Below are positions 14,386 through 22,492 of a stretch of DNA of 38,067 nt, piece after piece (the stretch's first letter is position 1; each line of letters opens with the position of its first letter). Origin of the DNA: Desulfobacterales bacterium (GTDB taxonomy: Bacteria > Desulfobacterota > DSM-4660 > Desulfatiglandales > JALVZP01); the NCBI GenBank assembly GCA_027064285.1, contig JAMOPX010000174.1:1-38067 (forward strand), written 5' to 3'. Position numbers and translations under genes: made by a program. The notes below the pieces were generated by a model. The model saw only the letters and a list, made by a program, of their open reading frames with translations. It was not told the DNA's origin and made no database searches.

Positions 14386-14757
14386 ATGGGGATGAAAAGA
14401 GGAAATGTAATTGCTTTAGTAATTATGGGTATTTGTATAATCATTGGAATTATAGGTTATGCGGCATTTCCTACTAAAAATCCTGAAAAGCCTATTAGGA
14501 TAATGCTCATGACTACGGCTGGAAATGTATTATTTGATCATAAGGCTCATTTTACTGACTATGGTGCTGAGTGTATGGATTGTCATCACGATATATCTGA
14601 TGATACTGAAAGGCCTGAAGCCTGTAGTAAATGCCATCTTCCCCAAGAAAGTGAAGAAGCACCCAAGAGAGCAGTAGCTTTTCATAAACAGTGCATAGGA
14701 TGTCATGAAGATCAAGGAATGGGACCTACAGACTGCTCTGGCTGTCATCTAAGATAG
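14386..14757 (+). CDS. Membrane-anchored tetrahaem cytochrome c (class III / c3-like)
   Basis: Four CxxCH motifs (CMDCH, CSKCH, CIGCH, CSGCH) after an N-terminal TM or signal anchor (VIALVIMGICIIIGIIGYAAF). It is the first gene of the rnf operon. Confidence 0.85.
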   Translation: MGMKRGNVIALVIMGICIIIGIIGYAAFPTKNPEKPIRIMLMTTAGNVLFDHKAHFTDYGAECMDCHHDISDDTERPEACSKCHLPQESEEAPKRAVAFHKQCIGCHEDQGMGPTDCSGCHLR

Positions 14758-14769
14758 AGGGGGAAAAAT

Positions 14770-15984
14770 ATGTTCAAAAGACCTTTTTTTAAGCTGATTA
14801 AACCAAGGTTTAGATATGCTTCTTTAAAAGATGAGGTATCTGTTACTGAAATTTCTCTTCCAGACAAGGCTATCCTCTTATTAGAAAAAAGCGAAGTCAG
14901 ACCATCTGAACTACAGGGTTATATAGGTAAAAGAATTAAGACAGGCCAGATAATAAATCTTCGGGAAACAGATTTGGTTTCTCCTGTCACAGGTGTTGTT
15001 CTTAAGATTTCTCAGTATACTGGATATCTAAATGTCAGCTACTATGCCCTTCATATTCAAATAGAAGAAGATGAAATAGAAGCTCCTTCTGAGGATTATA
15101 TTCCTTATTCACTTCCTGGAATTAAAAATTTGAAGCTGCTGTTTGGTTTTAATCCTCCCATAAACCATGCTATTGTTATGGCAGTAGATACTGACCTATT
15201 AGTTACCACAAATCAGGTTTGTTTTAAAAACAGATTAGACCATATAAAAAATGGTATAAGCTTCATAACCCAAAGAGCCAAGATAGGAAATATAAGTTTT
15301 GTCCTATTTCCAGAGCTTATTAAGTATGCAGAAGAGCTTGAGTGCAAATACCATATCTTGAAATCAATATATCCTAATTCCCTGCCAAAGCTTATAGTTA
15401 AAGATATTTTAAAGAAACATATACCTGCTGGAAAAGAGCCAGAGGATATGGGTGTTGCTTTTTTGAGTTCTGAGGCGGTAGCAAATATGGGGGTTTTTTA
15501 TAGAGGAGAGTGGTCTTTTGATAAGTTCATAACTTTTATAGACAAAGATTATTCCATAACACACATCAAGGCAAGGATAGGTACTCCTATACATCATATC
15601 CTAAGTCAACTTGGTATTGAAATAGAGCAGGGGGACAGAATCATATTTGGCGGACCGATGAGAGGTAAAACTATTTATTCTCTTGATACACCTATTGATT
15701 ATGAAACAGATGCCATATTCATTCAAGATAGCTCAGAGATTATTTCTTATTCTGACACCCACTGCATAAACTGTGGAGAATGTATCAAGGTATGTCCTGT
15801 AAATGTTCCTGTAAACATGTTAGTGAGGCTCCTTGAAAATGGTCTTTTCGAAGAGGCTGCTAAACAGTATGGACTCCTTTCATGTATTGAATGTGGCCTA
15901 TGTAGTTATGTATGCATAGCACGAATCCCTGTTTTTCAGTACATTATGCTTGGAAAGTATGAGCTATCTAAGATGGGGGAATAA
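14770..15984 (+). CDS. rnfC: Rnf complex subunit C (divergent; retains 2x[4Fe-4S], NADH/FMN motifs not evident)
   Basis: GGPMRG motif and two ferredoxin-type clusters (CINCGECIKVCP, CIECGLCSYVC). It occupies the position ahead of rnfD. The canonical GGAGFP and ECEPY motifs are replaced by FGFNPP and VDTDLL. Confidence 0.8.
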   Translation: MFKRPFFKLIKPRFRYASLKDEVSVTEISLPDKAILLLEKSEVRPSELQGYIGKRIKTGQIINLRETDLVSPVTGVVLKISQYTGYLNVSYYALHIQIEEDEIEAPSEDYIPYSLPGIKNLKLLFGFNPPINHAIVMAVDTDLLVTTNQVCFKNRLDHIKNGISFITQRAKIGNISFVLFPELIKYAEELECKYHILKSIYPNSLPKLIVKDILKKHIPAGKEPEDMGVAFLSSEAVANMGVFYRGEWSFDKFITFIDKDYSITHIKARIGTPIHHILSQLGIEIEQGDRIIFGGPMRGKTIYSLDTPIDYETDAIFIQDSSEIISYSDTHCINCGECIKVCPVNVPVNMLVRLLENGLFEEAAKQYGLLSCIECGLCSYVCIARIPVFQYIMLGKYELSKMGE

Positions 15985-15985
15985 G

Positions 15986-16933
15986 ATGTCTGAACAAAAA
16001 TTGCTTATAGGTGCTCACGCCCCTTTTTGGCATACTGGGGACAGTATTACAAAAAAGAATCTGAATCTGATTATTGCTGCTCTTCCGGCAGCAATCTATG
16101 GTATATGGATGTATGGAATGCCAGCCCTAAGGGTTTTAACCCTGAGTGTTGGCTGTGCAATGCTTTGGGAATTGATAATGAATCTGATAATGAAAAGACC
16201 TATCTCCATAGGAGATGCAAGTGCTGCGTTTATAGGACTGGTTTTTGGGATGATGCTTCCTGCAACAGCTCCATTCTGGATTATACTTGTGGGCACATTT
16301 ATTGCTATAGTTGTGGGTAAACAGATATATGGTGGAATAGGATGCAATCCCTTTAATCCTGTTCTTGTGGCAATGGCAATGCTTTTGCTATCTTGGAAAG
16401 ATGTGATTGATTTTAATGCCGCTCTTGTAAACTACGACTTCGGATTTAATATGTTTTATCCTTTATCTGCAGTAAAGTCCTTTGGTGCATCAGCAGTCTC
16501 TAATTATAATCTACATTCTTTGTTTATGGGAAAGCAGGCAGGAGGAATAGGCGCTGTATTTGGAATAGGGCTTCTTATCGGCGGTGTCTATCTTATTCTT
16601 AGAGGCTATATAAAGTGGGAGATAAGTTTATCATTCCTCTTGGGCATATATATAACAGCATATCTGTTTCATATTCACAATCCTGAAAAATATGCAATTC
16701 CTCTATTTCACATTGTAACTGGCTATACATTGCTTGGGGCATTCTTTTTGGCTCCCGAAGATTCTTCTTCTCCTGTTAATCTGATACCCAAGATTATATA
16801 CGGCGCTGGTGCAGGAGTTTTGATTGTGCTTATAAGAAATATTGGGGCATTTGTGGATGGGACAGTATTTGCCATACTTATAATGAATGTGGCAAATCCT
16901 ATGTTTGATAAAATAAGGCCCAAGGTATTGTAG
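15986..16933 (+). CDS. rnfD: Rnf complex subunit D (integral membrane)
   Basis: Polytopic membrane protein in the NqrB/RnfD position. I prefer the ATG at 15986 (GGGGGA RBS, 1 nt after the rnfC stop) to the listed 15950 start. Confidence 0.85.
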   Translation: MSEQKLLIGAHAPFWHTGDSITKKNLNLIIAALPAAIYGIWMYGMPALRVLTLSVGCAMLWELIMNLIMKRPISIGDASAAFIGLVFGMMLPATAPFWIILVGTFIAIVVGKQIYGGIGCNPFNPVLVAMAMLLLSWKDVIDFNAALVNYDFGFNMFYPLSAVKSFGASAVSNYNLHSLFMGKQAGGIGAVFGIGLLIGGVYLILRGYIKWEISLSFLLGIYITAYLFHIHNPEKYAIPLFHIVTGYTLLGAFFLAPEDSSSPVNLIPKIIYGAGAGVLIVLIRNIGAFVDGTVFAILIMNVANPMFDKIRPKVL

Positions 16934-16944
16934 GGGGTTAAAAG

Positions 16945-17553
16945 ATGCGAGATATTTTAAAGCTATTCTTAGCTGTAACCATATTTAGTGCGATATCCGG
17001 TGGTCTTCTTGCGTTTGTAAGAAGTGCAACTCAGGCAAGAATAGAGTATCAGCAGCTCAAATTTGTAAAAGGCCCTACCTTAAAGGAGATAATGAAAGGG
17101 TGTCAGAATGATCCTATAGTGGATAGATTTAAAGTAAAATGTGGAAAAAAGGAGAAAACCATATTTGTTGGAGTATTTAATGGCAAACCAAAAGTAATTG
17201 CTTTAGAGGCCTTTGGAAAGGGGTTTCATGGTGATATAGGTGTTATGGTGGGAATAGATGTTACTACAGACAAGATTTTGGGTATTGGTGTTACCACACA
17301 TGGGGAGACCCCTGGGGTGGGATCCAGGGTAAAGACAGATCCAAGTTTTAGGACTCAATTTAAAGGTGTTTCTGTAAATGAATCAGTTAAGGTAAAGGCT
17401 GATGGAGGGCAGATTGATGCCGTTACAGGAGCAACCATATCATCCAGAGGTGTGTGTAAGGCTGTAAATAACGCATTGGCTTTGTATAAAAAACTAAAAC
17501 CAGAGATTTTAAAAAGACTTAAGAATTTTAAAAGCAAAAAACTAAGCTCTTAA
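16945..17553 (+). CDS. rnfG: Rnf complex subunit G (FMN-binding)
   Basis: N-terminal TM anchor and the flavinylation motif DAVTGATISSRG. Confidence 0.9.
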   Translation: MRDILKLFLAVTIFSAISGGLLAFVRSATQARIEYQQLKFVKGPTLKEIMKGCQNDPIVDRFKVKCGKKEKTIFVGVFNGKPKVIALEAFGKGFHGDIGVMVGIDVTTDKILGIGVTTHGETPGVGSRVKTDPSFRTQFKGVSVNESVKVKADGGQIDAVTGATISSRGVCKAVNNALALYKKLKPEILKRLKNFKSKKLSS

Positions 17554-17566
17554 AAGAGGGTGTGCT

Positions 17567-18160
17567 ATGGTAAAAAGGGCAGTTAATGAATTCGTAAAAG
17601 GATTGTGGGAAGAGATACCTCCTTTTAGATTAGTATTAGGGCTTTGTCCTACCTTAGCAGTAACAAAGACAGTAGAAAATGCCTTAGGGATGGGAATGGC
17701 GGTTATATTTGTGCTTACATGTTCAAATGTGATTGTTTCTGCTGTAAGGAATCTTATTCCAAAGCAGGTAAGGATTGCCTGTTTTATAGTGGTTATTGCC
17801 ACTTTTGTTACCATAGTTGAACTTGTTATGCAGGCATTTACCTATCCACTTTATTTGAAGCTTGGAATTTTTATACCTTTGATTGTGGTTAACTGTATTT
17901 TATTAGGCCGCGCAGAGGCATTTGCTTCTAAGAATGGAGTAATATACTCCCTTGCAGATGGTTTAGGAATTGGGATAGGCTATACCTTGGCCTTAAGTGC
18001 CCTTGCATCTATAAGAGAAATTTTTGGTTATGGCACCTTTTATCATATCTCTGTATTTGGTCCTTCTTTTAAGCCTTTTTCTTTCATGGTAAAGGCGCCT
18101 GGTGCATTTGTTTGCTTAGGGCTTATGCTCTGTATCATGAATATGTTCAAGAAAAAGTAA
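17567..18160 (+). CDS. rnfE: Rnf complex subunit E
   Basis: Six-TM NqrD/RnfE-type protein (LVLGLCPTLAVT, VVNCILLGRAEAFA). Confidence 0.9.
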   Translation: MVKRAVNEFVKGLWEEIPPFRLVLGLCPTLAVTKTVENALGMGMAVIFVLTCSNVIVSAVRNLIPKQVRIACFIVVIATFVTIVELVMQAFTYPLYLKLGIFIPLIVVNCILLGRAEAFASKNGVIYSLADGLGIGIGYTLALSALASIREIFGYGTFYHISVFGPSFKPFSFMVKAPGAFVCLGLMLCIMNMFKKK

Positions 18161-18173
18161 GAGGAGTAGGATC

Positions 18174-18752
18174 ATGGAAAGCTACATAGTCTTAGTAATA
18201 AGCTGTATATTTGTAAACAATATTCTTCTGATGCAATACTTGGGCAACTGCCCATTTCTTGGTGTTTCAAAGAGAATGGAAACTGCTGTTGGAATGGCAA
18301 TGGCAGTTATATTTGTACTTGTTATGGCTGGAGCTGTGACATGGGTAGTAAATTACTATATTCTCAAACCATATGATTTGGAATATCTGCGAACATTATC
18401 TTTTATTTTGGTTATTGCATCTCTTGTTCAATTAGTGGAAATGTTTCTTAAGAAAAACATTCCTGCTCTTTACGCTGGTCTTGGAATATATTTACCCCTT
18501 ATCACTACAAATTGTGCTGTCTTGGGCGTTTGTCTTATAAATATGAAAGAAGAATATGATTTTATCCATACTCTTGTTTCATCTTTCAGTTATGCAGCAG
18601 GATTTGGACTGGCACTTGTGCTTTTTGCTGCCATAAGAGAGAGAATACTTTTGGCAAGGGTTCCAAAACCTCTTCAGGATACATCTATTGGATTGGTTAC
18701 AGCAGGAATGCTTTCCTTAGCATTTTTTGGCTTCAAAGGTATGATCCATTAG
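18174..18752 (+). CDS. rnfA: Rnf complex subunit A
   Basis: Six-TM NqrE/RnfA-type protein (LGNCPFLGVS, ITTNCAVLGV). Confidence 0.9.
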   Translation: MESYIVLVISCIFVNNILLMQYLGNCPFLGVSKRMETAVGMAMAVIFVLVMAGAVTWVVNYYILKPYDLEYLRTLSFILVIASLVQLVEMFLKKNIPALYAGLGIYLPLITTNCAVLGVCLINMKEEYDFIHTLVSSFSYAAGFGLALVLFAAIRERILLARVPKPLQDTSIGLVTAGMLSLAFFGFKGMIH

Positions 18753-18772
18753 ATCAAGGGGGTGTATAAGAG

Positions 18773-20773
18773 ATGATAGAAGGCCTGTTAGTTATGGGAG
18801 GGCTTGGTGCAATATTAGGATTAGGTCTTGCTGTTGCTTCAAAGGTATTTTATGTATATGTGGACCCTAGGGTTGAGGCAGTAGAGGAGCTACTTCCCGG
18901 CGCAAACTGTGGCGGATGTGGTTTTCCTGGATGTAGCGCCAATGCAGAAGCTATTGTGGCAGGAAAGTCCTCGCCTGCATCCTGTGTTGCTGTAAGCCAA
19001 GAAGTTATTCAGCAGATAGCAGAAATTGTGGGGGCAAAGATAGAGCTAAAAGAGCCTGAAGTAGCTAAGCCCAATTGCAAGTATGGAGTTTTTGATGCAG
19101 ATAGAAAATATATATATGACGGAGTAAAAGATTGTCGAGCAGCGATTCTTATAAATGGTGGGGAAAAGGAATGTCCCATAGGATGCTTAGGGCTTGGCAC
19201 ATGTGTGAAGGCATGTCCTTTTGGCGCACTTTCCATAGGGCCTGATAGACTTCCAGTAGTAGATACAGAGCTATGTACAGGATGTGGAACATGTGAAAGG
19301 GTATGTCCAAAACAGATTATAAAACTTAGTTCAAATTCTTTGGCTATTGTTCATGAATATACTACTGAAGAGTGCACCGCACCTTGCCAAAGGGCATGTC
19401 CTGCAGGAATAGATATTCCTGGCTATATAAGAGCAATAAGAGATGGAAATTATAGCGAGGCTCTTATTATAATAAAAAGGTCAAATCCATTTCCGGGTGT
19501 ATGCGGAAGAATCTGTGTTCATCCATGCGAATATGAATGCAGAAGAAATCTTGTAGATGAAGCAGTGGCTATAAATCCTTTAAAGAGATTTGTTTCTGAT
19601 TGGGAAAGAGAAAAAGGTGTACATATACAAGTTCCAAGGGCTCCAGAGAGAGAAGAAAAAATTGCTATTATTGGAGGTGGTGTTGAAGGACTAACCTCTG
19701 CTTATCTTTTGAATCGATTAGGATATGAAACAAAGGTATATGAAGCTACTTCTAAGCTTGGTGGGATACTCTGGTTAGGTCTTCCAGAAAATAGGCTTCC
19801 AAGAGATGTTATTGAGTGGGATATAAATGGAATCTTAGATGCTGGAGTTCAAGTAGAATTGAATAAAGCATTAGGAAAAGATATTACCATAGAGTCTATT
19901 TTTAAAGAAGGATTTTCTGCGATAATGATAGCAACTGGTGGATGGGATATGAAAATGTATTTGTCAAGTTTGTTGCCCAATGGCTTCAGTCCACTTCCTG
20001 GAGTTCAACTTCTTTTAGATATTATATTGAGATCTAAAAAAGGAGAAGACATAGAATTGGGAGATTCTGTGCTGATTCTTGAAGGAGGAGAGGCCTCTTT
20101 GCAAGCAGCTGCTGTATGTAAAGAAAAAGGAGTAAAGAATGTGTATGTGATTTTTAGGGATTCAGATTTGGCAGCTACTCAAAAGGAAGGGATAGAGATC
20201 TTAAATCATACTGTTCTAACAAAGATGGGTGGAGTCGGAAATAAACTTAAGGAAGTGGAGATCTGTGAAATAACAGAAGAAGGAAAGGAAAAAGAAGGAA
20301 GTAGAAGGGTTATTCAGGTGGACACCATACTTATGGGAGCGGGTCGTTTTCCAGAATTGATATATGTTCTAAAACAAGACAGTGAAACAGAATGGGAGAC
20401 TGTGAGTCCATATGCAGGTCCTGAAGCAGAACAGGAGATCGGAATATTTAGGCCAGGTGAAGTAATAGCTGATTATAAGGCAGCAGTTGAGGCAATCGGA
20501 GCGGGTAGGAGAATGACAGCATCTATACACAATTTCCTTAGGGGTTTACCAGTTGAAGCACCAAAAAATATGCTTAAAAAGTACACCCAAGTATTGGATG
20601 TAGAGGATGTTCAAGGAGTAAAACCTGTGCCCAGAAAGAGAATGCCCAAAAGAAAAGAGAATGAGCTTGAAGATTCTTTTCTTGAGATTGAGCTTGGTTA
20701 TACAGAAGCAGAAGCAAGAGAAGAAGCGCAAAGATGTCTTCAGTGCGGGCTTATATGTTATAGAAAAAATTAA
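18773..20773 (+). CDS. rnfB: Rnf complex subunit B fused to polyferredoxin and a GltD/NfnB-like FAD/NAD(P)H oxidoreductase module
   Basis: N-terminal TM plus LPGANCGGCGFPGC (RnfB signature). 2x[4Fe-4S] (CVKACP, CTGCGTCERVCP). GltD-type Fe-S region CTAPCQRACPAGIDIPGYI...NPFPGVCGRICVHPCEYECRR. Rossmann fold KIAIIGGGVEGLTSAYLL...YEATSKLGG. 666 aa. Confidence 0.85.
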   Translation: MIEGLLVMGGLGAILGLGLAVASKVFYVYVDPRVEAVEELLPGANCGGCGFPGCSANAEAIVAGKSSPASCVAVSQEVIQQIAEIVGAKIELKEPEVAKPNCKYGVFDADRKYIYDGVKDCRAAILINGGEKECPIGCLGLGTCVKACPFGALSIGPDRLPVVDTELCTGCGTCERVCPKQIIKLSSNSLAIVHEYTTEECTAPCQRACPAGIDIPGYIRAIRDGNYSEALIIIKRSNPFPGVCGRICVHPCEYECRRNLVDEAVAINPLKRFVSDWEREKGVHIQVPRAPEREEKIAIIGGGVEGLTSAYLLNRLGYETKVYEATSKLGGILWLGLPENRLPRDVIEWDINGILDAGVQVELNKALGKDITIESIFKEGFSAIMIATGGWDMKMYLSSLLPNGFSPLPGVQLLLDIILRSKKGEDIELGDSVLILEGGEASLQAAAVCKEKGVKNVYVIFRDSDLAATQKEGIEILNHTVLTKMGGVGNKLKEVEICEITEEGKEKEGSRRVIQVDTILMGAGRFPELIYVLKQDSETEWETVSPYAGPEAEQEIGIFRPGEVIADYKAAVEAIGAGRRMTASIHNFLRGLPVEAPKNMLKKYTQVLDVEDVQGVKPVPRKRMPKRKENELEDSFLEIELGYTEAEAREEAQRCLQCGLICYRKN

Positions 20774-21213
20774 CTATTTGTAGAAAGTATTCTGGTCATA
20801 CGTATCTTGTATGCCTCTTTTTTGCGGAAGGATTTATCTATCTTTTTTAACAGATAAAAGCTAAGGATTAATAAAAAGAGTGCCCCTAATATAGAACCTA
20901 CACTTGAAGTAAGACCTATTCTGAGAGCAATCTGAGCGCCTTCATATGCTCCAAATAAAAGAGAAAAGATGGGCAATATGTAGACCAGAAATGCTATTTT
21001 TACTAATGAACCAGAAGGGACGCTTAGCTCTACTCTATCACCTACTTTTGCATTTAGAGTATTTTCCACCTCTATGAAAACTTCTTTATTTGAACCAAAA
21101 CTTACACCACATGTTCCTCGCGCAGAACAGTGTTTGCATGCAGCATCTCTTTCCACCTTAACTATTGCTTTTCCCTCTTTTATTTCTTCTACAATACCAT
21201 TTTCTGAAAGCAT
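20770..21213 (-). CDS. rseC: RseC/MucC-family protein (SoxR-reducing system component-like)
   Basis: GIVEEIKEGKAIVKVERDAACKHCSARGTCG cysteine motif followed by two TM helices. The ORF is open to 21297, but the M at 21213 (MLSENG...) gives the usual family length. The start is uncertain. Confidence 0.65.
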   Translation of the reverse strand: MLSENGIVEEIKEGKAIVKVERDAACKHCSARGTCGVSFGSNKEVFIEVENTLNAKVGDRVELSVPSGSLVKIAFLVYILPIFSLLFGAYEGAQIALRIGLTSSVGSILGALFLLILSFYLLKKIDKSFRKKEAYKIRMTRILSTNS

Positions 21214-21296
21214 GACTAAAATATATCCCTTAACTATCTCTTTTGCAAGCTCTATCTTCTTTTGCTTTCTTTTTCTTTTTGGTATCTTATAAAACA

Positions 21297-21941
21297 ATGA
21301 AAGAGAAACTTAAAGATATGTATAAAAAAATGTTATCTTTTTTTGGACCCCAGAACTGGTGGCCTGCAGATACTCCTCTTGAAGTAATGATAGGTGCTAT
21401 ATTAACCCAAAATACTAATTGGAAGAATGTAGAGAAGGCAATAAATAACTTAAAAGAAAAGGGGTTATTAGATATACTCAAAATTCATAAAATGCCTGAA
21501 CAGGAGCTTTCTCTTTTGATTAAATCTGCCGGTTATTTCAAAATAAAGGCAAAAAGGGTTAAAAATCTCATTTCACATATAGTTAAGAACTATAATGCAG
21601 ACTTGAATAAATTTTTTTCGCTTGATACTGAGTCTTTAAGACGCGAGCTTCTTTCTATAAAAGGTATAGGACCTGAGACAGCAGATAGCATTTTATTATA
21701 TGCTGCTCACAGACCTGTATTTGTAGTAGATGCCTATACTTTTAGGATAATGAAAAGACACAATATGATCTGGGATGATATTGGCTACGAGGAGCTACAA
21801 GAGCTGTTTATGAAAAACCTTCCTTGTGACGAGCAGTTATTTAATGAATTTCACGCACTAATAGTACAAACTGGTAAGCAGTTTTGTAAGAAAAAGCCGC
21901 TTTGTAAAGGTTGCCCTCTTGATGGCTGGCCAGAGCAATAG
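21297..21941 (+). CDS. Endonuclease III-related HhH-GPD superfamily protein
   Basis: ILTQNTNWKNVEKA, helix-hairpin-helix LLSIKGIGPETADSILLY, VVDAY, and a C-terminal Cys cluster CKKKPLCKGCPL. I prefer the ATG at 21297 to the listed 21243 start. Confidence 0.75.
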   Translation: MKEKLKDMYKKMLSFFGPQNWWPADTPLEVMIGAILTQNTNWKNVEKAINNLKEKGLLDILKIHKMPEQELSLLIKSAGYFKIKAKRVKNLISHIVKNYNADLNKFFSLDTESLRRELLSIKGIGPETADSILLYAAHRPVFVVDAYTFRIMKRHNMIWDDIGYEELQELFMKNLPCDEQLFNEFHALIVQTGKQFCKKKPLCKGCPLDGWPEQ

Positions 21942-21946
21942 CTTGG

Positions 21947-22492
21947 TTATACTTTCAGGATTCCCTTGACTCTCTCTGACACATCTTTTAAATCATTTTC
22001 ATTTGGTCTTCCTTTTATATTTCCCATTCGTCCAATTGTAGAGAAAGGGGTCAACTTTTTTGATCTATATTCTCCTACAAAATACCATTCAGCAATTATA
22101 GTAAATCCTAAATGATCAAAAAGTTGACCCATATATTTGACAGCGGGAATAGCTTCATTTATACCTGTATGCACTCCACCATATGTACAGTAGAGTACGG
22201 CCTTCTTGTTTGACCTTCTTGGTGCGGCAGGTTTGATTTCCCCTTTTTCAAAATACTTCCACAGCATCTTTGTGAAAAATTCTTGTATTGGTTTTCCTGG
22301 AAGCCATTGATAGACTCCTGAACCTGCAAATACAAAATCATAGCTCAGTAGTTCTATATCTATATCACTACTTTCCTTAGTAATCCTAATTGTTTCTACT
22401 TCATGCTCTTCTTTCTTTGCTGTTTCACTTATAACATTGGCTATCTTTTCTGTATTTCCTGTGGCAGAATAATAAATGTTTAAAATTTTCAT
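21947..22492 (-). CDS. Flavodoxin-family protein
   Basis: N-terminal FMN phosphate loop MKILNIYYSATGNTEKIA. AAGGAGG RBS. Confidence 0.75.
   Translation of the reverse strand: MKILNIYYSATGNTEKIANVISETAKKEEHEVETIRITKESSDIDIELLSYDFVFAGSGVYQWLPGKPIQEFFTKMLWKYFEKGEIKPAAPRRSNKKAVLYCTYGGVHTGINEAIPAVKYMGQLFDHLGFTIIAEWYFVGEYRSKKLTPFSTIGRMGNIKGRPNENDLKDVSERVKGILKV

Follow-up and report, generated by a model that had tools for sequence, protein, structure and literature searches.

The locus examined here raises the question of what an RnfB subunit becomes when its reading frame continues, without a stop, into a second half that resembles a flavoprotein. The window, by which we mean the whole stretch of DNA that was analysed, comprises 38,067 nucleotides (positions 1 to 38,067, forward strand, of contig JAMOPX010000174.1) from the Desulfobacterales bacterium assembly GCA_027064285.1, and the gene in question occupies positions 18773-20773 on the + strand as a single open reading frame (ORF) of 666 amino acids with zero internal stops, the last gene of an rnf operon. 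The encoded protein is, with high confidence, the large RnfB of an Rnf2-type complex, the type exemplified by Desulfobacula toluolica Tol2. A large RnfB with a flavin and iron-sulfur (Fe-S) module is real, conserved and already published as a type carried by nearly all Desulfobacterales, and the window's protein is an ordinary member of this described kind. What is new here is the assignment of the module to the StnC/NfnA type, the lysine at position 271, the permuted Fer4_20 domain, and the lineage-specific erosion of the nicotinamide subdomain.

The N-terminal part of the protein is that of an RnfB. Residues 1-190 (18773-19342, + strand) contain a transmembrane helix, a cluster motif (C46, C49, C54 and C71) and a ferredoxin domain with two [4Fe-4S] motifs, with PF04060 (FeS) at residues 41-72 and a Fer4 dicluster at 137-184. 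This core scores 76.2 bits against the NCBIfam rnfB model TIGR01944 (cutoff 68.7) over residues 6-190, and a sequence search against solved structures matched RnfB chains 7zc6_B and 9eri_B over residues 5-189 (E = 1.6e-47). Helix, cluster and ferredoxin domains above the family cutoff are joined by an operon containing rnfC, D, G, E and A. The AlphaFold2 (AF2) model of the whole protein places the helix at residues 2-25 and has a mean predicted local distance difference test score (pLDDT) of 75.6, with the flavoprotein part mostly at 80-96.

Beyond the core, the body of a Fer4_20 domain spans residues 199-285 (19367-19627, + strand) and includes C201, C205, C209, C244, C248, C252, C256 and K271; the Pfam match (PF14691, residues 200-282) reaches E = 2.9e-24 and 85.5 bits against a cutoff of 25.8. 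The first part of a flavin adenine dinucleotide (FAD) Rossmann domain follows at residues 286-400 (19628-19972, + strand; GGGVEGL, YE, GG and RLP motifs), detected as NAD_binding_8 at 299-331 together with Pyr_redox at 296-331 and modelled at pLDDT 90-96. Its FAD fingerprint is kept (GGGVEGL, 301-307), and across the 76 homologues used for all statements of invariance G301, G303, G306, E324, G330, G331 and R341 are unchanged. A second, NAD(P)H-type Rossmann subdomain of divergent sequence (LEGGEASLQAA; FRDSD with a loop deletion) occupies residues 401-530 (19973-20362, + strand; Pyr_redox_2 at 378-529), and the second part of the FAD domain, defined by invariance and alignment, occupies residues 531-600 (20363-20572, + strand) with GIFRPGE instead of GVFAAGD. 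The protein ends in a helix with the motif C655-x2-C658-x3-C662 (20675-20761, + strand), whose CxxCxxxC cysteines are invariant across the family. All motifs quoted in the preliminary description were located in the translation (CGGCGFPGC at residues 46-54, and CTAPCQRAC, IIGGGVEGL, ILEGGEASLQAA, FRPGEV and CLQCGLIC starting at 201, 299, 435, 559 and 655), and its account of a normal RnfB N-terminus running uninterrupted into a GltD-like Fe-S region and an FAD-type Rossmann fold was correct. FRPGE in place of FAAGD, which it had called divergent, is a family-wide trait, with F559, R560, G562 and E563 invariant. Pfam, NCBIfam and fold searches all place the C-terminal half in the GltD/NfnB flavoprotein superfamily, and assignment to a non-flavoprotein family is ruled out. 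Residues 199-663 are covered by PRK12771/GltD-like NCBIfam models, of which PRK12771 is the best (318 bits against a cutoff of 516), and the curated cutoffs of the gltA, gltD and Nfn-type models were all missed (e.g., TIGR01316, 199 against 472 bits). By these scores, the module is related at the level of the superfamily and lies outside the named families.

A frame of this kind could arise from an assembly or sequencing error in which rnfB was run together with a separate gltD-like gene, as the preliminary description had itself recognised. We found nothing in favour of such an error and raise it only since the window's metagenome-assembled genome (MAG) is fragmented into 233 contigs. The same single-frame fusion occurs in 145 of the 174 genomes of the same order at E ≤ 1e-100, complete genomes included (83/86 and 49/55 genomes in the two large families, together 132/141, and 4/4 in the organism's own family). 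Among the matches listed, most span residues 1-665 in one frame, internal stops are confined to two, and a few more are incomplete. In a word-indexed protein search covering independent sources, full-length homologues of 660-703 amino acids fall into more than 120 clusters at 90% identity and are 55-100% identical to the window's protein; matches also come from MAGs named Desulfobacteraceae. Logan contigs from four runs of two studies cover the span 18600-20900 with zero insertions, deletions or joints, and strain variants across the stretch fall at third codon positions in 20 of 21 cases and are synonymous in the fused frame in 19 of 21, on both sides of the module junction. Genome survey, metagenome contigs and variant pattern agree that there is no frameshift or join, and the assembly artefact is rejected as having practically no probability.

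Of the four covering runs, one (X2) is annotated as a hydrothermal vent metagenome, and the records of the other three name no organism; two further runs with a small share of the stretch are also annotated as hydrothermal vent metagenomes. The runs listed for the stretch include no RNA data set. The identity of the window's large RnfB to the copies in the order's other families is only 40-63%. In many genomes of the order there are two full-length paralogues of the large RnfB, of which one is ∼55-60% and the other ∼40-42% identical to the window's protein (for example, G073:C1:2190303-2192354 and G073:C1:4525198-4527243). These two paralogue classes suggest at least two Rnf2 subtypes.

The large-RnfB type of Rnf complex is described by Dörries et al., 2016 (PMC5109826), who cite the D. 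toluolica Tol2 genome paper, and goes under the name Rnf2 in a paper of 2025 (PMC11887813). Narrower literature searches, on RnfB fused to glutamate synthase or paired with NfnB, gave nothing or unrelated mentions only; a broader one led to this description. In Rnf2, RnfB has ∼700 amino acids, the first ∼200 being RnfB-like and the following ∼500 carrying a pyridine nucleotide-disulfide oxidoreductase domain (PMC5109826; PMC11887813 supplement), and RnfC is without the flavin mononucleotide (FMN)/NADH domains and the N-terminal barrel-sandwich domain (PMC5109826; PMC11887813). The gene clusters include a cytochrome c3, and Rnf2 belongs to the core genome of the Desulfobacteraceae, with abundant and constitutive production (PMC11887813). 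Both Rnf types are present in D. multivorans and D. autotrophicum (PMC5109826). The window's RnfB was set beside the Tol2 RnfB (TOL2_C10170) by published description, and the two systems have in common the large RnfB, an RnfC without FMN and barrel-sandwich domains, and a cytochrome c3 gene; Rnf2 can also coexist with a canonical Rnf1 in one genome, as it does here. The window's copy differs in coming from an uncultured vent lineage with a 1.7-Mb genome of 36% GC and in having an NAD(P)H subdomain more eroded than usual. A pyridine-nucleotide site on RnfB, with cytochrome c as a possible third partner, has already been hypothesised for Rnf2 (PMC5109826; PMC11887813 supplement), and the preliminary description, in suggesting that the complex might couple ferredoxin, NAD(P)H and cytochrome c, had arrived at the same proposal.

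The operon itself has the Rnf2 composition, with the 666-residue two-part RnfB, an RnfC without FMN or barrel-sandwich domains, and a cytochrome c3. On the + strand the gene order is cytochrome c3-rnfC-D-G-E-A-B, with gaps of 12-20 nt. The first gene (14386-14757, + strand) encodes a 123-residue, membrane-anchored tetrahaem cytochrome c3-like protein (Pfam Cytochrom_CIII, E = 8.9e-14) whose translation shows four CxxCH motifs and an N-terminal hydrophobic anchor; it ends 12 nt upstream of rnfC, and 15 related loci have a homologue in the same place. The RnfC-like subunit (404 amino acids; 14770-15984, + strand) has two [4Fe-4S] motifs and no recognisable FMN/NADH domain. Pfam returned only Fer4 families for it, and the Complex1_51K (PF01512), RnfC_N (PF13375) and SLBB (PF10531) domains were sought there without a match. 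Its score against TIGR01945, 160.8 bits over residues 133-400 only, is under the cutoff of 245.95, and it can be aligned to the solved RnfC chains 7zc6_C and 9eri_C over residues 182-401 only. The RnfC that the preliminary description had called degenerate is therefore so in the absence of all three domains, in its partial alignment, and by contrast with the genome's second RnfC, described below.

What type of flavoprotein module, then, does the large RnfB carry? The best solved relatives of residues 197-663 are NfnA (9bov_A, 227.6 bits; 9n5u_A), from Bfu-type NfnABC (PDB 9BOV and 9N5U), and StnC (8oh5_C), from Sporomusa ovata StnABC (PDB 8OH5), which rank above NfnB, GltD and dihydropyrimidine dehydrogenase (DPD). 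Fold comparison of the AF2 model with VIA gives the same picture, with Z-scores of 28-31 against NfnA and StnC over residues 198-660/666 (30.7 over 198-660), compared to 16-20 against NfnB, GltD and DPD, whose alignments end near 591-627 (residues 200-597 for NfnB and GltD). Only the NfnA and StnC chains align out to model residues 660-666. Foldseek ranks the chains in the same order; its TM-scores are low (0.3-0.4, root mean square deviation ∼15 Å), probably because the model is multi-domain and the RnfB part does not superpose on the target chains, and E-values and VIA Z-scores with their aligned ranges were used instead.

A closer look at the cluster ligands points the same way. The alignment of the large RnfB with 9bov_A is gapless across residues 197-285 with an offset of 101, so that C209, C248, C252 and K271, all invariant, correspond to Cys108, Cys147, Cys151 and Lys170, which ligate the FAD-proximal cluster of Csac NfnA (PMC11829005). 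In StnC, whose flavin has been shown to be non-bifurcating, the equivalent lysine is strictly conserved and functionally required, while in bifurcating NfnB a glutamate is the fourth ligand of the FAD-proximal [4Fe-4S] cluster (PMC10482914). Lys271 stands, without exception among the homologues, where NfnB has this glutamate, and by its sequence the module of the large RnfB therefore carries the non-bifurcating signature. The preliminary description's "GltD/NfnB-like" label is right for the superfamily, while the likeness to NfnB gives way to a closer one to non-bifurcating StnC/NfnA in sequence, in fold and at Lys271.

The StnC/NfnA module serves as a non-bifurcating NADPH/FAD entry that sends single electrons down an Fe-S chain (PMC10482914; PMC11829005). 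With it the large RnfB shares a lysine fourth ligand at the proximal cluster and the EAxRCLxCG segment at the C-terminus. It differs in that StnC and NfnA have an N-terminal [2Fe-2S] domain and a NuoG/Fdh-like domain docking HydBC-like subunits, both missing from the large RnfB; in StnC/NfnA the module sits on a HydBC-like bifurcating core, whereas here it sits on the membrane-anchored RnfB and ends at residue 666. The GGGNTAMD and YRRxxEEMPA motifs of StnC and NfnA are also replaced. The large RnfB thus shares a module with StnC/NfnA without being a member of that family. With the N-terminal module of NfnB, GltD and DPD it has in common Fer4_20, two Rossmann domains, the FAD fingerprint and the RLP arginine, but those proteins have an unpermuted Fer4_20 with its CxxC segment at the N-terminus and are without the C-terminal 70-residue extension of the large RnfB, and NfnB has the ligand glutamate.

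These comparisons bear directly on whether the FAD of the fused module could be an NfnB-like bifurcating site, reduced by NAD(P)H and sending one electron uphill to ferredoxin through the RnfB clusters and the other downhill to the membrane chain or cytochrome c3, with the three partners obligately coupled. The module does belong to the NfnB superfamily (4ylf_B, E = 8.7e-54; VIA Z = 16.5), Arg341, equivalent to R201 of NfnB and R239 of StnC, is invariant, and the cluster offers potential sites for three partners, namely ferredoxin, pyridine nucleotide and cytochrome. Set against this are the lysine at the fourth-ligand position, as in non-bifurcating StnC/NfnA, the non-bifurcating character of the closest sequence and fold relatives, and an operon that encodes no second FAD exit such as the NfnA-type [2Fe-2S]/FAD partner of NfnB. 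We regard a bifurcating flavin in the large RnfB as improbable.

The comparison with NfnA also bears on the cysteines at the end of the protein. Residues 201-282 correspond to Fer4_20 profile positions 27-112, and a search with only the last 47 residues (620-666) places profile positions 4-28 at residues 635-659 (E = 3.6e-5); residues 651-663 align to EASRCLECGC, residues 560-571 of 9bov_A. By the profile positions and this alignment, Fer4_20, with its two [4Fe-4S] sites, is circularly permuted, its first ∼25 positions lying at the C-terminus. The CLQCGLIC motif that the preliminary description had reported as extra is indeed present and invariant, but since it falls at profile positions 4-28 and aligns with 9bov_A, it is most likely the displaced first CxxC segment of Fer4_20. 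Together with C201, C205 and C256, this segment probably completes the distal cluster.

StnC-type modules are reused several times in the small genome of the window's organism, because in three further long ORFs (frames of 840-1070 amino acids) the match to the GltD-like module extends as far as the C-terminal CxxC segment, up to query residues 658-662 (contig C209:1526-3085, contig C135:5256-6719 and contig C160:4594-5946). A fourth ORF, of 470 amino acids, is NfnB/GltD-like and lies on contig C206.

From these observations, the best explanation as a whole, which we consider probable, is an Rnf2-type RnfB whose non-bifurcating FAD/Fe-S module feeds the RnfB electron chain. Subunit B would provide the docking sites of both NAD(P)H and ferredoxin. 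The FAD of the module would trade hydride with NAD(P)H and act as a non-bifurcating converter between two-electron and one-electron transfer, feeding or draining the Fe-S chain of RnfB. Single electrons would run through the proximal cluster (C209/C248/C252/K271), the distal cluster (C201/C205/C256 with a C-terminal cysteine), the ferredoxin clusters of RnfB and its N-terminal cluster, and would then cross RnfA/E to RnfG and RnfD. The exit would be to the periplasmic cytochrome c3 and/or the Fe-S stub of RnfC, coupled to ion translocation; the far end is placed at the RnfC stub and/or the tetrahaem cytochrome because this RnfC is without a flavin site. For the step in which NAD(P)H reacts at RnfB, we hold the case to be evenly balanced across the large-RnfB family and to fall below even in this lineage, because the nicotinamide subdomain is eroded.

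Several points weigh against this explanation. Literature searches turned up neither biochemistry nor a structure for any large RnfB, and in a term search of the 2025 Rnf/NQR review (PMC12174285), 'Desulfo', 'sulfate-reducing' and 'cytochrome c' had no match. The distal-cluster ligands and the role of the C-terminal cysteines are putative assignments by alignment only, and the RnfB ferredoxin region of the model is of low confidence (pLDDT <50 for residues 91-186). The remaining points concern the second Rossmann subdomain, where the NAD(P)H fingerprint is damaged by a glutamate in place of the first glycine and by deletion of the loop equivalent to RRxxxEMPA. Taken by themselves, residues 405-535 show no significant similarity to Nfn or GltD structures (E = 0.19-0.64), whereas the same region of the homologue P0018 matches NfnA with E = 8e-14. 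Apart from the inter-domain linker, the subdomain is the least conserved segment of the family (49% mean identity, against 59-80% for the other structured parts), and for the window's protein the mean identity is lower still (0.38). A search of the isolated subdomain against PDB sequences returned only spurious low-complexity matches to designed pentatricopeptide repeat (PPR) proteins, a result taken solely as a sign of lost likeness to Nfn/GltD.

The divergence of this second dinucleotide site, which the preliminary description had noted, is borne out by the glutamate, the loop deletion and the loss of similarity in isolation, and it has two layers. Among 120 homologues, the first glycine of GxGxxA is glycine in 99 and glutamate in 19, and it is Glu437 in the window's protein. 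Most large RnfBs have GGG followed by xA(A/S)LEAA, and their loop after FRxxR is of normal length, while the window's clade has LEGGEASLQAA and a loop after FR that is 9-14 residues shorter and ends in FRDSD. The divergence is partly a family trait and partly lineage-specific erosion, which makes nicotinamide binding uncertain in this lineage. The preliminary description's proposal that a pyridine-nucleotide or other two-electron site has moved to RnfB agrees with the published Rnf2 hypothesis.

Has this small-genome vent lineage lost the site altogether? Its second Rossmann subdomain may no longer bind NAD(P)H, leaving the module as an FAD/Fe-S relay, a structural cap or a site for another two-electron substrate, with Rnf1 handling pyridine nucleotides. 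Beside the altered glycine and shortened nucleotide loop of the clade, and the contrast in similarity between its isolated subdomain and that of a typical homologue, this alternative draws on the genome, where a complete Rnf1 with an intact NADH/FMN domain in RnfC is encoded. This second, canonical rnf cluster lies on contig C196 as RnfC, then RnfD, G, E, A, a short RnfB and ApbE, and its RnfC of 451 amino acids has complete Complex1_51K, RnfC_N and SLBB domains. On the other side, purifying selection persists: the closest relatives share 94-100% identity in the subdomain, and the single strain variant that falls inside the subdomain is synonymous. Its beta-alpha-beta fold is kept in the model at pLDDT 86-95, and a glutamate found at the first glycine in 19 of 120 homologues may be tolerated. 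Acidic residues at a strand-end spacing like that of FRDSD are typical of NADH-preferring Rossmann folds, and the acidic strand end would mean a switch of specificity, not a loss. We consider complete loss of NAD(P)H binding unlikely.

A broader proposal, which we put forward tentatively and consider possible but doubtful, is that Rnf2 represents a convergent redesign along the lines of the Na+-translocating NADH:quinone oxidoreductase (Na+-NQR). Na+-NQR passes electrons to quinone at NqrB. In Rnf2, NAD(P)H would enter at subunit B through a StnC-type, non-bifurcating FAD next to the ferredoxin site, RnfC would be a vestigial Fe-S stub comparable to NqrA, and output would be through the membrane-anchored tetrahaem cytochrome of the periplasm. 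As a pump, Rnf2 would then act as an NAD(P)H/ferredoxin:cytochrome c3 oxidoreductase, with Qrc and the menaquinone pool supplied from it. The nicotinamide subdomain of the window's vent lineage has been remodelled by the change of glycine to glutamate, the loop deletion and the acidic FRDSD strand end, and the site for pyridine nucleotides would there have been lost or have changed its cofactor preference. NqrF is a transmembrane-anchored input subunit at the position of RnfB with an Fe-S and an FAD/NADH domain, in our reading a functional analogue and no homologue, and NqrA, the homologue of RnfC, is no longer the NADH site, which parallels RnfC in Rnf2 (PMC12174285). NqrF differs in combining an FNR-type FAD domain with a [2Fe-2S] cluster, a different fold from the module of the large RnfB. 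The first half of this proposal overlaps with published hypotheses.

The genome in which this system is found measures 1.72 Mb in 233 contigs, is 93% complete and has 36% GC. It encodes DsrA, AprA and QrcA, all above curated cutoffs. The window's organism is therefore a sulfate reducer, and the published electron transfer from cytochrome c3 to Qrc is possible in it. The genomes of its own family (G000, G170-G173) are 1.7-2.0 Mb at 91-97% completeness, and those of the rest of the order are mostly 3-8 Mb. In the short RnfB of Rnf1 (contig C196; L042:1311-2186, - strand), an in-frame TGA stands at the first cysteine of CGGCGxxGC (AGAQ-U-GGCGFAGC). SelB is encoded in the genome (388 bits, above the curated cutoff), and the RNA 3′ of the TGA forms a modest hairpin (z = -1.9) that is not decisive for a selenocysteine insertion sequence (SECIS) element; the TGA could encode a selenocysteine ligand in the Fe-S motif.

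The remaining genes of the operon are those of an Rnf complex. RnfD (15950-16933) matches PF03116 (E = 4.6e-86) and TIGR01946 above cutoff; RnfG (16945-17553) has the FMN_bind domain (PF04205, E = 6.1e-21) and scores 256.5 bits against NF045876, RnfG_DVU2794 (cutoff 205); RnfE (17567-18160) and RnfA (18174-18752) both match PF02508 (E = 2.9e-65 and 6.4e-57) and are above the cutoffs of TIGR01948 and TIGR01943, respectively, all four on the + strand. A convergent RseC/MucC-family gene (20770-21297, - strand; PF04246, E = 5.3e-33) has a stop that overlaps the rnfB stop. This pairing is conserved and no local accident, because the gene holds the same convergent position in most related loci. The layout cytochrome c3-rnfC'-D-G-E-A-B(large), followed by the convergent rseC-like gene, is conserved in related loci, and in a second group of loci RnfC is more RnfC-like and there is no detectable cytochrome gene. 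Two further genes lie just downstream of the rnf operon. One is an ORF for a HhH-GPD DNA glycosylase (21243-21941, + strand) that, at its listed TTG start, overlaps the rseC-like gene at the latter's 5′ end; the other is flavodoxin-like (21947-22492, - strand).

In nine related loci (L013, L015, L017, L018, L022, L023, L024, L030 and L033; e.g., L022:1231-3474, + strand), a NuoE-like and NuoF-like (HydBC/StnAB-like) pair lies directly upstream of the large-RnfB rnf cluster on the same strand. The pair occurs in loci both with and without the cytochrome gene and has no homologue in the window's genome. Given the StnC-like module on RnfB, the pair might serve the organisms concerned as a docking partner.

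According to published work, the Desulfobacteraceae account for a large part of organic carbon oxidation in marine sediments. The window does not bring a new kind of system; it offers a natural variant of Rnf2 with a damaged nicotinamide fingerprint, in a genome that also encodes Rnf1, and in Lys271 and the permuted Fer4_20 it offers signatures that argue for a StnC-like, non-bifurcating flavin. Establishing the cofactor of Rnf2 (NADH or NADPH), whether it bifurcates, and whether its electrons leave through cytochrome c3 would settle how ferredoxin, pyridine nucleotides and quinone are linked, and how energy is conserved, in these sulfate reducers.

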